Shown piece after piece: positions 13,961 to 17,858 of a DNA stretch of 64,000 nucleotides. This DNA is from Nitrospirota bacterium (GTDB lineage Bacteria; Nitrospirota; Thermodesulfovibrionia; UBA6902). The first letter of the stretch is position 1, and each line of letters starts with the position of its first letter. The DNA lies in NCBI GenBank assembly GCA_016234115.1, contig JACRHD010000018.1, positions 20,724 to 84,723 of the forward strand, in the 5' to 3' direction. The notes below the pieces were generated by a model. It was not told where the DNA came from and ran no database searches. It saw only the letters and a program-made list of their open reading frames with translations. The translations under genes and the position numbers were made by a program.

Positions 13961-15120
13961 CTTCGCCTTCTCACGTAATAATCATTTGTCATAAAATTGT
14001 CCGCATTCGCGCCCTGCACGGTTGTCCTGTTTTCATTTCTCTTTGAAATATTAATCAGTATTCCCGCTGCCGCCATGTTGATGAGAAGCGCAGAGCCCCC
14101 ATAACTTATAAAAGGCAGCGGCAGCCCCTTGGTCGGCATCAAGCCGGTCGTTACCGCAAAGTTGATAAGGACCTGGACCCCTATCATCATAGTCATTCCG
14201 GTCGCAAGGAAATAACTGAAAGGATCACAGGTCCTGTTGGCGACCCTGATCCCTTTTATGAATAACCAGAAAAAAAGGACAAGCACCGCTGCGGCGCCTA
14301 TCAACCCTAATTCCTCGCCGATCAGGGAAAAGATAAAATCCGTATGGACTTCAGGGAGAAAATACAGCTTCTGTTTGCTTCCGCCGGGACCGAGCCCGAA
14401 TACGCCCCCGTTTCCGAAGGCGATAAAAGACTGAATAAGCTGGAACCCGCTGCCCTGCGGGTCTTTCCACGGGTTGGTGAAGCTCATTATTCTCTTCATC
14501 CTGTATGACGATGAGGCGACAAGATAAAAAATGGCCGGAAGTGAGAGCAGGAACATCGCGCCCACGTACCTGAGCCTTACGCCCCCCACAATCAGGAGCC
14601 CCAGGGTGAGAATGCCGAGGCTCATTACCGCCCCAAAATCCGGCTGCATTATAATAACGAGCTGAAAGACCAGCATGACGCCGATGGGGACCAGTATGCC
14701 GTAGCGGAAGTCTTTCATCCTGTGAATGTTCCTGTCCATATAGTGGGCGAGGAAAAAAACCATCACTATCTTTACAAACTCCGAAGGCTGAAACGTCGTG
14801 GGCCACAACCTCAGCCACCTCCTGGCGCCGTTGGCGGAAATCCCTATGCCGGGCACAAATACCAGCAGCAGCAGCGCCAGGCCGGTCCCCATAAGCACAT
14901 AGACAAAGTCCCTCGGCCTTTGATAGTCCATATGTGACAGAAGGACCATCGCGATGGTCCCTATAAATACGGTAAAGAGATGGCTAACCAAATAATGAAA
15001 ACTGTTGCCGTGCTTGTTCATGGACATCAGCACAGTGGAGCTGTAGACCATGAGTATGCCGACGCATAAAAGAGCGGCAACCAGAATTATTATTGTCCTC
15101 GTGTCCTTATTATTTGTCAT
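13957..15120 (-). CDS. ftsW: SEDS family peptidoglycan glycosyltransferase FtsW
   Basis: GARRWL, QPSEFVK, QPDFG, LPEVHTDFIF, KGLPLPFISYGGS. Confidence 0.96.
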   Translation of the reverse strand: MTNNKDTRTIIILVAALLCVGILMVYSSTVLMSMNKHGNSFHYLVSHLFTVFIGTIAMVLLSHMDYQRPRDFVYVLMGTGLALLLLVFVPGIGISANGARRWLRLWPTTFQPSEFVKIVMVFFLAHYMDRNIHRMKDFRYGILVPIGVMLVFQLVIIMQPDFGAVMSLGILTLGLLIVGGVRLRYVGAMFLLSLPAIFYLVASSSYRMKRIMSFTNPWKDPQGSGFQLIQSFIAFGNGGVFGLGPGGSKQKLYFLPEVHTDFIFSLIGEELGLIGAAAVLVLFFWLFIKGIRVANRTCDPFSYFLATGMTMMIGVQVLINFAVTTGLMPTKGLPLPFISYGGSALLINMAAAGILINISKRNENRTTVQGANADNFMTNDYYVRRRR

Positions 15121-15135
15121 TAATTTCTTTTCCTT

Positions 15136-15200
15136 GTAAGGGCGACCCGGCGGGTCGCCCCTACGCTAAACTCTTAACTCTTGACTCTTGACTCTTGAAC
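15136..15200. repeat. GTAG-type REP hairpin with adjoining GAGTCAA heptamer arm overlapping the murD stop
   Basis: Minus strand: gagtcaa gagtcaa gagttaa gagttta gc GTAGGGGCGACCCGCCGGGTCGCCCTTAC. Confidence 0.85.
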
Positions 15201-16700
15201 CAGCTTCACCGCTTCCTTGAATTTCCTGCCCCTGTCTTCGAAATCCTTAAACATATCGAAGCTCGCGCACCCTGGCGACAGCAGTACGACATCTCCGGGA
15301 GACGCCTTTGCCATAGAAAGGTCAACCGCCGCCTGAAGGTCCCCTGCAATGAGGGTCTCCGTTACGCCTCCCAATGCCTCTTCAATCTTGTCTTTTGCCT
15401 TGCCGATTAAAACCAGGGCCTTCACTTTCCGCCTGACCAGGTCCCTCAGGACCGAGAAATCGCTCCCCTTGTCAAGCCCTCCCATAATTAAAATTACATC
15501 ATCAAGCCCCTCCAATGACTTAAACACAGCGCCGATGTTTGTCCCTTTGGAATCGTTAATGAACCTGACGCCTCCGACCTCGCCGGCAAATTCGAGCCTG
15601 TGTTCGAGACCCGGAAAACTCTTCAATACGTTTGCAATAGCGTCCGGGGGACATCCCGCTGAAAGGGCAACCAGGGCGGCCGCCATAGCGTTTTCGATAT
15701 TGTGAACACCCTGGATTTTTATCTCATTCTGAGATATAAGTGGGAAGTGAGAAGTGGGAAGTTGGAAGTGGGACGAATTGCAATAAATCATTCCGTCTTT
15801 CAAATAAACGCCCTCGACTTCTTTCATGCGACTGAAATAAAGTATTTTGGGTAATTTTTTACTTCTGACTTTCAACTTCTCAGTCCTCACTTTTTCTAAT
15901 ACATCATCAGCATTAAGGACCAGAAAATCATCGTGAGTCTGATTTTCAAAGATCCTCGCCTTGGCCTCGATGTACTCTTCCATGTTTTCATATCTGTCAA
16001 GATGGTCGGGCGTAATGTTGAGAACAGCCGCGATCTTCGGCCTGAATTCGTTAATTGTCTCGAGCTGGAAACTGGATATCTCGGCAACAATATAATCAAG
16101 AGGCAAGGGACGTGGACTTTCCCCTGACCCTTGACCCATGACCCTTGCCCCTGCCTTTAATATCTCCTCAGACAAGGCAATTCCTATGTTCCCTCCCAAC
16201 AGCGTACCGAACCCCGCCTCTTTCAGCATGAGGTCAACAAGCATGGTGGTTGTCGATTTCCCATTGGTGCCGGTAATGCCTATGAAGAAGGGGCAAGGGG
16301 CAAGGGGCAAGGGGCCGGGAGATCCATGACCCTTGACCCATGCCCCTTGACCCATTTGTTTAATCGCCTGATACGCGAGTTCGAGTTCGCCGATCACCGG
16401 GATGCCCTTTATTCTCGCGCGTTCGGGTACATGGGATTTTAGAGGCACTCCGGGGCTTATTATTATCATGTCGGCAGAGTCGATAATTTCATCCGGATCA
16501 TCACCGGTTAATATATTTACAGACGGCAGCAGTCTCTTAATATGGGCTTCAAGCGCACTTCTTGATTTACTGTCGGTAATTGTGACTTCAGCGCCTAACG
16601 CGGAGAGAAGGTTTGCCGCGCCCGTACCGCTTCGCGCAAGCCCGACTACTACGATGTTTTTACCTTTAAATGTCATTTCCTGTTTTTCCATTTGTATCAT
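15174..16700 (-). CDS. murD: UDP-N-acetylmuramoyl-L-alanine--D-glutamate ligase, with five repeat-derived segments
   Basis: VVGLARSG, ITGTNGKSTT, EISSFQL, GLEHRLE, NDSKGTN, LSPGCASFD. Confidence 0.98.
   Translation of the reverse strand: MIQMEKQEMTFKGKNIVVVGLARSGTGAANLLSALGAEVTITDSKSRSALEAHIKRLLPSVNILTGDDPDEIIDSADMIIISPGVPLKSHVPERARIKGIPVIGELELAYQAIKQMGQGAWVKGHGSPGPLPLAPCPFFIGITGTNGKSTTTMLVDLMLKEAGFGTLLGGNIGIALSEEILKAGARVMGQGSGESPRPLPLDYIVAEISSFQLETINEFRPKIAAVLNITPDHLDRYENMEEYIEAKARIFENQTHDDFLVLNADDVLEKVRTEKLKVRSKKLPKILYFSRMKEVEGVYLKDGMIYCNSSHFQLPTSHFPLISQNEIKIQGVHNIENAMAAALVALSAGCPPDAIANVLKSFPGLEHRLEFAGEVGGVRFINDSKGTNIGAVFKSLEGLDDVILIMGGLDKGSDFSVLRDLVRRKVKALVLIGKAKDKIEEALGGVTETLIAGDLQAAVDLSMAKASPGDVVLLSPGCASFDMFKDFEDRGRKFKEAVKLVQESRVKS
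15738..15895. repeat. Pair of five-heptamer arms in murD (AAGTGGG-type 15738-15772; ACTTCTC-type 15861-15895)
   Basis: Encode SHFQLPTSHFPL and KVRTEKLKVRSK. Confidence 0.8.
16098..16156. repeat. In-frame heptamer inverted repeat in murD
   Basis: Encodes GARVMGQGSGESPRPLPL before DYIVAEISSFQL. Confidence 0.85.
16290..16354. repeat. In-frame heptamer inverted repeat in murD
   Basis: Encodes MGQGAWVKGHGSPGPLPLAPCP immediately before FFIGITGTNGKST. Confidence 0.9.
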
Positions 16701-16712
16701 TCTGTATGTTCA

Positions 16713-16770
16713 CATGGGCAAGTCACCGACTCGCCCCTACCAAACTCTAAACTCTAAACTCTTGACTCTG
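16713..16770. repeat. GTAG-type REP hairpin abutting a GAGTTTA heptamer arm after the mraY stop
   Basis: Minus strand: gagtcaa gagttta gagttta gagtttg GTAGGGGCGAGTCGGTGACTTGCCCATG. Confidence 0.85.
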
Positions 16771-16775
16771 CCTTT

Positions 16776-17858
16776 TCACCTGACCTTCAATGTCGTCAAA
16801 CTCAGCAGCGCCAAAACAATCCCGACAATCCAGAACCGGATGATCACCTTGGGCTCCGGCCAGCCCATCACCTCGAAATGATGGTGTATAGGCGCCATCT
16901 TGAATACTCTTTTACCTGTAAGCTTAAACGATGTAACCTGGATAATAACCGAGAAGGTCTCAATAACAAATATGGCGCCGACAACCGCCAAAATGATCTC
17001 CTGCTTTGTTATCACCGCGAGGGTCCCTAACGCGCCCCCTAATCCGAGGGAGCCCACATCACCCATAAAAACGTCGGCGGGATAGCTGTTGTACCAGAGG
17101 AAACCGAGGGCCGCGCCGAACATCGCACCGCAAAAAACCGTAAGCTCTCCCGTGCCCGGCAGATAAAGGACCTGAAGGTATTGTGAAAATCCCGCATGCC
17201 CCGAGATATAAACGAATACTGCATTTGCAAGAGAAGCGACACCCACGAGACCTATCGCCAGACCGTCTATTCCATCCGTAAGGTTCACGGCGTTAGAGGA
17301 CCCTACTATTACGAGTATTATGAAAGGGATATAAAACCACCCCAGATCGATCAGCCATTTCTTGAAAAAAGGGATGCTCAGTTTGGCGATATAAATGTCA
17401 TTGGGATCGAAATAAAATACAAAGCCTATCAAAAGCGCAAGGAGGATCTGCGCGCCGAACTTGTACCAACCCTTCAGTCCCTTGGGGTTTTTCTTGATCA
17501 CCTTCAGGTAATCATCCGTCAGCCCTATAAGCCCGAAACCGACGATTGAGAAGACCATGATCAGGACAAATTTATTGCTCAGGTCCCCCCACAGCAGCAC
17601 GCTCGTCACAATAGACAAGATAATGATTACTCCGCCCATTGTCGGAGTGCCTTCCTTTTTCAGGTGTGTCCGGGGGCCGTCATCTCTGACATACTGGGTC
17701 ATGCTCAGCTTTCTGAGTTTTTTAATGATCGCCGGGGCGAATATAAACGTTATAAACAATGAAGTAATAATGGCGAGAGCCGTCCTGAAGGTAATGTACC
17801 TGAATACATTAAGGGCCGAATAGGAATCGTGAAAATAATAGAGCAGTTTATACAGCAC
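16776..17858 (-). CDS. mraY: Phospho-N-acetylmuramoyl-pentapeptide-transferase
   Basis: KEGTPTMGG, DDYLK, SNAVNLTDGIDGL, VFMGDVGSL, MAPIHHHFE; GTG start. Confidence 0.98.
   Translation of the reverse strand: MLYKLLYYFHDSYSALNVFRYITFRTALAIITSLFITFIFAPAIIKKLRKLSMTQYVRDDGPRTHLKKEGTPTMGGVIIILSIVTSVLLWGDLSNKFVLIMVFSIVGFGLIGLTDDYLKVIKKNPKGLKGWYKFGAQILLALLIGFVFYFDPNDIYIAKLSIPFFKKWLIDLGWFYIPFIILVIVGSSNAVNLTDGIDGLAIGLVGVASLANAVFVYISGHAGFSQYLQVLYLPGTGELTVFCGAMFGAALGFLWYNSYPADVFMGDVGSLGLGGALGTLAVITKQEIILAVVGAIFVIETFSVIIQVTSFKLTGKRVFKMAPIHHHFEVMGWPEPKVIIRFWIVGIVLALLSLTTLKVR

Follow-up and report, generated by a model that had tools for sequence, protein, structure and literature searches.

Heptameric units are in excess among the long simple-sequence repeats (SSR) of prokaryotic genomes, and the STRR elements of cyanobacteria are tandem repeats of heptanucleotides that lie predominantly in intergenic regions. 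Here we report a pair of inverted heptamer arrays that is translated as part of murD in a member of the Nitrospirota (Thermodesulfovibrionia-like) and brackets native coding sequence of this gene. The pair was located in a window of 64,000 nt (the whole stretch of DNA that was analysed, to which all coordinates refer). The repeats of this genome resemble the STRR and long SSR class in that they are short tandem arrays of 7-nt units, belong to many families per genome and show a strong excess of period 7. Unlike STRR, however, the arrays have about five units, form inverted pairs with a purine-first polarity and lie in frame within housekeeping genes; those in murD, lpxK and purL are moreover split around native coding sequence, and their host belongs to the Nitrospirota. 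No description of split, translated, inverted heptamer arrays of this kind was found in the literature searched.

Several other systems share individual features with this locus. REP/REPIN and MITE-like hairpins are likewise dispersed, hairpin-forming repeats that are able to sit in permissive protein loops, but REP/REPIN units are family-specific and insert as a whole, whereas the elements described here consist of reiterated heptamers of many families and their arms are non-contiguous. PF05635 is a protein family known from the intervening sequences that RNase III excises from rRNA (23S rRNA intervening-sequence protein). Genes of this family that carry inverted repeats are similar to the murD locus in that inverted heptamer arrays surround a non-repeat segment, but the spacer in murD consists of MurD residues 281–309, and all matches to PF05635 lie elsewhere. 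Template switching between the arms of inverted repeats, including those in coding DNA, is documented as a process that creates and homogenises hairpin arms (PMC8794818, PMC8604942). Such quasipalindrome correction resembles the present case in that it concerns imperfect inverted repeats ~90–150 nt apart, also in coding DNA, whose arms stay similar, and it implies that one arm could be templated by the other (PMC8794818, PMC8604942). Template switching leaves the 7-nt periodicity, the ~5-unit length, the genome-wide families and the polarity unexplained, however. Coding palindromes with both arms translated have been described from mitochondrial genes of Nematomorpha; they are long and perfect, reach 284 bp and are without heptamer substructure, in contrast to the short arrays around native sequence found here (PMC6649704).

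Results

The gene at positions 15174..16700 (minus strand) was annotated as murD (UDP-N-acetylmuramoylalanine--D-glutamate ligase) from the ORF list and from Pfam and PDB matches. Its product of 508 aa is MurD; it has the three-domain architecture of Mur ligases (MurD-like_N, PF21799; Mur_ligase_M, PF08245; Mur_ligase_C, PF02875; all above cut-offs), and residues 9–497 match solved MurD structures in the PDB with E-values down to 2e-73. The gene is a member of the dcw cluster, with ftsW, mraY and murF as neighbours in the ORF list. In-frame repeat inserts make the protein ~60–70 aa longer than MurD proteins of solved structure.

The 5' (N-side) arm of the pair (15861..15895, minus strand) has a purine-rich sense strand, AAAAAGTGAGGACTGAGAAGTTGAAAGTCAGAAGT, and encodes residues 270–280 (KVRTEKLKVRS). 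The 3' (C-side) arm (15738..15773, minus strand) has a pyrimidine-rich sense strand, TCCCACTTCCAACTTCCCACTTCTCACTTCCCACTT, which corresponds to (AAGTGGG)x5 on the plus strand and encodes residues 310–321 (SHFQLPTSHFPL). Each arm comprises about five heptamers of the AAGTGRG family, and both are translated in frame. Tandem Repeats Finder reported the 3' arm (15738–15773) as 5.1 copies of AAGTGGG with 86% matches and did not call the 5' arm (15861–15895), where 9/14 positions match at lag 7. The 5' arm is the more decayed of the two; orthologue DNA identifies it as a decayed copy of a (GTGAGAA)n array found in relatives, and its irregular TTG unit avoids an in-frame TGA. An inverted-repeat search paired 15738–15769 with 15861–15892 (32 nt, 78% complementary, 25/32, 91 nt apart). 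The best inverted 32-mer in 300 codon shuffles of murD had 22 matches, and 25 were never reached, which confirms the preliminary description of two inverted arms of the same family. Two AAGTGRG arrays less than 100 nt apart are not expected by chance, since only ~12 of the 309 arrays in the genome belong to this family.

The sense-strand fold pairs the two arms (z = -2.6 vs. shuffles), which are predicted to be able to form a long-range stem; the energy predicted for the arm–arm duplex is about -24 to -31 kcal/mol in this murD and reaches about -55 kcal/mol in relatives. In the AlphaFold2 model, the 5' arm forms the end of a helix (residues 268–275) and the loop that follows, and the low pLDDT of the 3' arm peptide (<50 from residue 316 on) predicts disorder.

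The spacer of 87 nt (15774..15860, minus strand) encodes residues 281–309 (KKLPKILYFSRMKEVEGVYLKDGMIYCNS), which fold into three beta strands within the Mur ligase middle domain in the AlphaFold2 model (E285–290, E297–301, E304–308; pLDDT 76–87). The segment has a collinear homologue in the MurD of Streptococcus agalactiae (PDB 3lk7), and it can also be aligned with MurD proteins that lack arms, both from other phyla and from basal families within the class. In comparison to arm-less MurD, the spacer is flanked by two separate indels, of about +7 aa on the N side (the net gain of the 5' arm) and +5 to +8 aa on the C side, and the arms overwrite native loop residues in part instead of simply adding 12 aa each. 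These alignments show the arms to be two separate in-frame additions that partly replace loop residues, and the spacer to be native MurD. The bracketed segment had been taken for ordinary MurD, and it had been proposed that the spacer of such elements can be host sequence and that such elements do not result from the insertion of a preformed cassette at a single site. The alignment of orthologues, which had been suggested as a check, upholds these claims: the spacer is homologous to the MurD of relatives, and a preformed one-site cassette is excluded by the two separate indels around it. With its 87 nt of native sequence, the spacer is also unlike the loop of ~10–50 nt that belongs to an inserted short-loop element.

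The same gene contains two complete, in-frame heptamer hairpins of the short-loop type. One (16099..16152, minus strand; inverted pair and Tandem Repeats Finder) encodes approximately residues 183–200 (GARVMGQGSGESPRPLPL); the other (16288..16355, minus strand; Tandem Repeats Finder rows) consists of (AAGGGGC)x4 / (TGACCCT)x4 and encodes approximately residues 115–136. Both are without counterpart in PDB MurD and have a pLDDT of <50, at residues 186–197 and 117–134, respectively. A small hairpin with 10-nt arms (TTTTATCTCA / TGAGATATAA; 15717..15739, no strand assigned), detected as an inverted pair, adjoins the 3' arm; its translation is ISQNEIK, and orthologues with an ACTTCYC-type arm have kept it. 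An Rfam scan of positions 14500–17500 yielded only sub-threshold, miRNA-like chance matches, located at a hairpin other than the arm pair.

Genome-wide, 309 arrays of period 7 were found, compared with 0–24 for periods 5, 6 and 8–11. The usual element consists of a purine-rich array of ~5 x 7 nt, a loop of 10–40 nt and a complementary pyrimidine-rich array. The distances between partner arrays cluster at 0–50 nt, with a minority at 50–300 nt; the purine-rich array comes first in all short-loop hairpins (37:0) and in most pairs that are 50–300 nt apart (11:3), and the murD arm pair has the same polarity as the short-loop hairpins. The arms of this genome's lpxK and purL genes are likewise split, in frame and around native spacers of 148 and 154 nt. 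The genome encodes seven PF05635 genes, four of which have flanking inverted heptamer arms. No RVT_1 match for a reverse transcriptase was obtained in this 97%-complete genome.

Among 121 MurD orthologues sampled across the class, most have heptamer arrays at both arm sites. This comparison shows that the two-arm arrangement is of old age and extends over the greater part of the class. The two arms have no separate distributions among lineages; the contrary outcome named in the preliminary description, arms that arose independently in different lineages, is not borne out. Loop expansion was found at both sites in 90 orthologues, at the N site only in 12, at the C site only in 13 and at neither in six, with loop lengths that are nearly uncorrelated (Spearman 0.11). 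Strongly periodic arms of the three proteins (MurD, LpxK, PurL) are purine-rich rather than pyrimidine-rich at the 5' site (46:1) and pyrimidine-rich rather than purine-rich at the 3' site (40:0). REP-like hairpins occupy the same MurD and LpxK loops in relatives, and those in L004, L008 and L019 are REP-type hairpins (VGAIHESPL) that take the place of the 3' arm. Anecdotal signatures of template switching are the AAAT units in both arms of L110 and a TTGG/CCAA unit pair in the window. In-frame stops in some MurD orthologues were checked for an origin in the repeats; within the part examined there was a single case, a broken gene of G002.

Most orthologues with two clearly periodic arrays have mismatched arms. 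Complementarity is nevertheless more frequent within genomes than in cross-genome pairings, both for all MurD (11% vs. 1.9%, permutation p = 5e-4) and for one MurD per genus (7% vs. 1.0%, permutation p = 2e-4), and the same holds for PurL (30% vs. 2.0%, permutation p = 2e-4) and LpxK (permutation p = 0.01). Complementary arms occur at the same MurD loops in at least three to four repeat families: AAGTGAG|AAGTGGG in families f1, f3 and f20, and AATAGGC|AATAGGC and AAGAGTC|AGAAGTC in f10; the pair AAGATTC|AAGAGTT of f8 matches at only 5/7 positions. A systematic difference of one base per unit is common between matched arms (e.g., AGAAGTC vs. AGAAGTG in PurL). A comparison of duplex energies with RNAduplex in the first 19 orthologues (within-genome -26.3 vs. 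cross-genome -23.5 kcal/mol) is uninformative because most of them share one repeat family.

The arms are also distinguished by their codons. Synonymous-codon identity is 0.72 and 0.81 in the arms and 0.43 in the rest of murD, and the value of the 3' arm (0.81–0.83) is the highest in the gene. Serine is encoded by AGT at 37 of 38 arm positions and arginine by AGA at 20 of 21; the ratio of AGT to AGC is 37:1 in the arms and 120:90 elsewhere, and that of AGA to AGG is 20:0 and 143:205, respectively. At the level of aligned codons, arm DNA is thus shown to be conserved at synonymous sites. The unit family of the arms is shown by array counts to follow the genome-wide array pool of each lineage: AGGCAAT arrays have 42–124 matches in f10 genomes and 0–18 in f1 genomes, and GAGAAGT arrays show the reverse.

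Pairwise comparison of closely related genes shows that single arms are exchanged between lineages by recombination tracts of ~70–200 nt. The murD genes of L147 and L157 are 92–100% identical outside a patch of ~70 nt over the 5' arm; the swapped patch carries murD-specific flanking codons and results from allelic recombination, not from copying of a non-murD array. L006 and L007 are ~93% identical apart from the spacer and the 3' arm. Isolated variants shared between the arms were seen, and the arm swaps that could be traced were allelic recombination; a branch-resolved change copied from arm to arm was not among them. A young armed case with a highly identical arm-less sister was not found, including among LpxK and PurL of 30 relatives.

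Discussion

The murD pair is probably a split version of the heptamer-array hairpins of its lineage, with arms that are written or renewed by copying and not by cassette transposition. Its arrays occupy two different variable surface loops of the protein, and the loop of the hairpin hence consists of 87 nt of native coding sequence. The arms may be copied by template switching or by gene-conversion-type copying, with either the partner arm or other arrays of the genome's pool as template. Such copying would preserve the phase of 7 nt, the polarity and an approximate complementarity, whereas mismatches would be imposed by the need to encode protein, as in the case of a perfect (GTGAGAA)n, in which TGA would be read in frame. 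The recurrence of above-chance complementarity in several families favours a coupling or templating of the arms, one of the two routes suggested in the preliminary description (the other being the addition of arms on either side of existing DNA), whereas the independent loop lengths, the mostly mismatched arms and the recombination of single arms count against it. The differences of one base per unit between matched arms are not predicted by simple arm-to-arm copying.

The same loop lengths and mismatches would be expected if arrays had colonised two permissive loops independently and the pair-like appearance arose because both arms came from the family that prevailed in the genome at the time, an explanation that we regard as rather unlikely. 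The loops are general hot spots, as illustrated by the REP-type hairpins that replace the 3' arm in three orthologues; LpxK of G016 has an array at the 3' site only, and the arm family follows the genome pool. The polarity would then reflect the peptides that are tolerated, i.e., charged residues (K/E/R/S, purine-rich) in the polar loop and L/S/T/F/P (pyrimidine-rich) in the beta hairpin. However, single MurD loops tolerate complete hairpins with both types of arm, and the polarity extends over three unrelated proteins and is the same as the fixed polarity of the short-loop hairpins. Independent colonisation is also at odds with a complementarity that exceeds that of cross-genome pairings in three genes. 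Far less credible, at the level of a highly improbable reading, is a preformed arm–spacer–arm cassette inserted at one site of murD, or its variant in which the repeat-encoded peptides were selected as features of the protein. At another place in the genome, arms do enclose a cargo gene (PF05635), and arm peptides such as VRSEKLEVRSEK can be recognised from family to family, but the codon choice in the arms (AGT:AGC, AGA:AGG) is fixed far beyond the need of the peptide, and disorder is predicted for the 3' arm. The cassette version was tried against the orthologue alignments and is contradicted by a spacer that is collinear and homologous with arm-less MurD.

Selection could also act on the RNA. 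The arms may have been retained because their complementarity is selected for, giving the murD/dcw mRNA a long-range helix with a function, such as an RNase III site or another processing or regulatory site, with the periodicity as a mere trace of their origin. The pairing of the arms in the sense-strand fold and the constraint on their synonymous sites agree with such a role, the matched arms in different families look like covariation, and heptamer arrays also flank four of the seven genes of PF05635, a family of RNase III-excised intervening sequences. We consider this role unlikely: in the majority of lineages the arms do not pair, yet periodicity and polarity stay, and no Rfam family was matched. 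Moreover, the antisense duplex is the more stable one in 15/17 matched MurD orthologues (the sense strand has 42 A·C vs. 20 G·U mismatches), and the hairpins of this genome show no preference for either strand with respect to the direction of transcription (24 vs. 23).

A more specific proposal, which goes beyond the split hairpin renewed by copying and is distinctly unlikely, is that dedicated trans-acting machinery writes the heptamer arrays, possibly with the participation of the multi-copy PF05635 four-helix-bundle proteins, by adding ~5 templated 7-nt units to both 3' ends at a staggered break or a pair of nicks. If true, a purine-rich arm would be added on each strand, and the polarity, the matched arms, the fixed length of ~35 nt and the lineage-specific unit pools would be explained together. 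Anything between the nicks would become bracketed, be it a few bases, 87–154 nt of native coding sequence or a PF05635 gene. Raw counts link PF05635 copy number strongly with armed MurD (0/35 vs. 25/62 genomes without a copy); after phylogenetic pairing, which left only six independent pairs, the link was not significant.

The heptamer repeats of bacteria represent an old, unexplained excess, and the murD locus sets them apart from ordinary mobile cassettes. The arms of such hairpins can stand 87–154 nt apart around host coding sequence in essential genes. The possible mechanisms are thereby narrowed down to those that copy or write at two neighbouring points in pre-existing DNA, and murD, purL and lpxK become concrete test loci with a known ancestral state. 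In this class, repeat DNA is translated as part of housekeeping proteins and reshuffled through short recombination tracts, which matters for the annotation, phylogeny and protein modelling of these genomes.

The murD gene of the window (minus strand, 16700 to 15174) encodes a protein of 508 aa with three MurD/Mur-ligase Pfam domains above the cut-offs, and carries two heptamer arrays in inverted orientation. The 3' arm (15738-15773) consists of 5.1 copies of the plus-strand unit AAGTGGG (86% matches; TRF), whereas the 5' arm (15861-15895) is built of the complementary unit and is more decayed. A repeat search recovered them as an inverted-repeat pair of 32 nt, 91 nt apart and 78% complementary; 25 of the 32 positions are complementary, and the maximum in 300 codon shuffles of murD was 22. 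The arm pair is real and not a product of chance, and the preliminary description of two inverted arms of about five heptamers from one family stands. On the sense strand, the 5' arm is purine-rich (residues 270-280, KVRTEKLKVRS) and the 3' arm pyrimidine-rich (residues 310-321, SHFQLPTSHFPL). Period-7 arrays number 309 in the source genome (modal length 28-33 nt), against 0-24 for each neighbouring period; the AAGTGRG family accounts for only about 12 of them. The arrays belong with heptamer repeats of the STRR kind. A perfect small hairpin (TATCTCA-GAA-TGAGATA, 15717-15739; translated ISQNEIK) adjoins the 3' arm; it is kept in orthologues with an ACTTCYC-type arm, with a synonymous-codon identity of 0.57, above the murD average.

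The spacer between the arms (15774-15860; 87 nt, residues 281-309) is host sequence, as had been proposed from its ordinary appearance. Its segment ILYFSRMKEVEGVYLKDGMIYCNS was aligned to MurD of S. agalactiae (3lk7; phmmer against PDB) with gaps exactly at both arms and at two further inserts of the window MurD, and it is also collinear with MurD of other phyla. The stretch from LNADD to HNxEN measures 76 aa, compared with 65-66 aa in Nitrospira, Acidobacteria and many other phyla, and the excess is split between the N side (about +7 aa ahead of the YFS strand) and the C side (+5 to +8 aa past the IYC strand). Because each arm codes for about 12 aa and the net gain is smaller, the arms have replaced some native residues of the loops. 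In the AlphaFold2 model (mean pLDDT 75), the spacer forms three strands (285-290, 297-301 and 304-308; pLDDT 76-87), the 5' arm a helix end and loop, and the 3' arm a low-confidence loop. Insertion of a preformed cassette at a single site, which the preliminary description had doubted, is excluded by the homology of the spacer to MurD and the two separate flanking length gains. The two further in-frame inserts (16099-16152 and 16288-16355) are both complete heptamer hairpins with short loops (AAGGGGC/AAGGGTC families), missing in solved MurD structures and modelled with pLDDT <50; relatives have different repeats at these sites, REP-like ones included.

Among the matches listed, the best named relatives are MAGs called "Nitrospirae bacterium" and "Thermodesulfovibrionales bacterium", which places the source genome in a Thermodesulfovibrionia-like class of Nitrospirota. 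MurD was gathered from 143 genomes of the class, and the arm region was extracted from 121. Arm-less lengths (65-70 aa) were found in families f6, f11, f12, f17 and f21, and both loops were extended in most of f1-f5, f7, f8, f18-f20 and a subclade of f10. In 35 orthologues, one or both arrays remain strongly periodic. Of such arrays, the 28 at the 5' site are all purine-rich and the 24 at the 3' site all pyrimidine-rich; this polarity has no exception among the orthologues, although the unit families differ (GAGAAGT-type, AAGATTC, AAGAGTC, AATAGGC and AAGGTTC at the 5' site; complements of AAGTGGG, AAGGYTG, AAGAGTT, AAGTCAG, AATAGGC, GAGTTTT, GAGTGAC or TAGGGGT at the 3' site). The two in-frame sites are thus separate and fixed in polarity. 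An alternative at the 3' site is a REP-like hairpin translated VGAIHESPL. This palindrome, GTAGGGGCGATTCATGAATCGCCCCTAC, replaces the 3' arm in three loci of one genus (L004, L008 and L019 of genomes G009, G006 and G002), and L004 and L005 have the peptide at a further insert site of MurD as well, so that repeats of distinct classes compete for these loops. In L160 (genome G098), the GATTCAA array of the 5' arm is broken by a 27-nt GC-rich palindromic insert, GCTCGCCTCAGGCGAGTCGCCGAGGAG..., translated in frame, that is, one repeat class nested in another within murD. The reading frame of L019 contains TAA and TAG stops, and its N-terminal part is shifted; this is either a broken gene or a MAG assembly error.

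The same layout occurs elsewhere in the source genome. Inverted partners of arrays concentrate at 0-50 nt. Their purine-first polarity is 37:0 in this range and 11:3 at 50-300 nt, and is reversed at distances above 300 nt (7:16), as expected of neighbouring elements. In-frame split pairs were found in lpxK (contig C36:17282-17486), where the 148-nt spacer with a GDEP...RY.GG core aligns with Aquifex LpxK (4ehw), and in purL (C52:55096-55310), whose 154-nt spacer aligns with FGAM synthases of known structure. In 30 relatives, arm-less forms of LpxK and PurL exist, and two loops of each carry arrays of many unit families or REP hairpins, with fixed polarity. Inverted heptamer arrays also surround four of the seven genes of PF05635 (23S rRNA intervening-sequence protein family), at C65:1704-2140 (some 19 kb upstream of where the window begins), C27:19569-20071, C15:443-990 and C20:2157-2856, which makes arms around a non-repeat segment a general layout. 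The largest member of the murD-arm family is an 89-nt array of about 12 alternating GAAGTGA/GAAGTCA units (C11:3670-3758), whose complementary arm follows 96 nt downstream; the pair is not spanned by an ORF.

Matched arms of at least three to four unrelated unit families occupy the same two MurD loops: AAGTGAG/AAGTGGG in f1, f3 and f20, AATAGGC/AATAGGC in groups g41 and g62 of f10, AAGAGTC/AGAAGTC in g41 and g76 of f10, and AAGATTC/AAGAGTT, matching at 5/7 positions, in f8. Arms complementary at ≥17/21 positions made up 11% of within-genome but 1.9% of cross-genome pairings (permutation p = 5e-4), and 7% versus 1.0% with one genome per genus (p = 2e-4); the two arms are therefore not independent draws. 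Within-genome complementarity was likewise enriched in LpxK (p = 0.01) and in PurL (30% versus 2.0%, p = 2e-4), the latter with matched arms of five distinct families; it is above chance in several families. Where a MurD orthologue has two clear arrays, its arms are mismatched in most cases, and the lengths of the two loops vary nearly independently (both extended in 90, N loop only in 12, C loop only in 13, neither in 6). Much of the mismatch is explained by recombination, by which single arms move. L147 and L157, of one genus, have murD genes 92-100% identical outside a patch of about 70 nt, in which a GAGAAGT arm gives way to a GATTCAA arm and the murD-specific codons beside it are exchanged too; between L006 and L007, identity is about 93% outside the spacer and 3' arm. 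Several mismatched combinations appear to be recombinants of matched haplotypes, such as L163, which joins a 5' AATAGGC arm to a 3' AAGTCAG arm.

Conservation of the arms is evident in the DNA itself. At identical-amino-acid positions of 13 orthologues with an AAGTGRG-type pair, codon identity was 0.72 for the 5' arm and 0.81 for the 3' arm, the two highest peaks along the gene, compared with 0.57 for the spacer and 0.43 for the rest of murD. Peptide selection accounts neither for this nor for the codon bias of the arms (23 orthologues; Ser AGT:AGC 37:1 in arms and 120:90 elsewhere, Arg AGA:AGG 20:0 and 143:205). An irregular unit (TTG or TTA) is conserved because a perfect (GTGAGAA)n would put AAG TGA in frame, as read directly from the orthologue sequences. 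Drift alone is insufficient for the synonymous constraint, which could reflect selection on nucleic-acid structure or repeated renewal from a pool. Three-unit patterns (≤3 mismatches) were counted in six f10 and four f1 genomes: (AGGCAAT)x3 had 42-124 matches in f10 and 0-18 in f1, and (GAGAAGT)x3 had 31-101 in f1 and 1-14 in f10, save one genome with 43 (G065); the reversed GAGAAGT control is itself a repeat family in the source genome and hence not neutral. Arm family thus tracks the genome pool, and the murD arms are members of lineage-specific, genome-wide pools.

A function as RNA would agree with the predicted fold of the sense RNA (15700-15930), in which the arms pair (-57.2 kcal/mol, z = -2.6). 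We do not claim it, because most lineages have lost the arm pairing, 15 of 17 matched orthologues have mismatches that favour the antisense strand, hairpins across the genome are not biased to either strand with respect to adjoining genes (24 vs 23), and an Rfam scan of the arm region matched no family. The arrays belong with the unexplained heptamer repeats of bacteria (PMC4692102), and the translated inverted repeats recall known coding palindromes (PMC6649704). No description was found in the literature searched of arrays split around a native spacer in housekeeping genes, nor of their persistence throughout the class, their strict polarity or the switching of unit families. Template switching creates and homogenises inverted-repeat arms, coding DNA included, according to two studies (PMC8794818, PMC8604942), but leaves the 7-nt unit, the length of about five units and the invariant polarity unexplained. 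A dedicated activity that writes the arrays is possible but unsupported, as no RVT_1 match was found in the genome (97% complete) and the link of PF05635 with armed MurD was lost under phylogenetic control. We infer that copying, not transposition, lays down the arms and renews them; the route may be a template switch from one arm to the other or conversion by further arrays.
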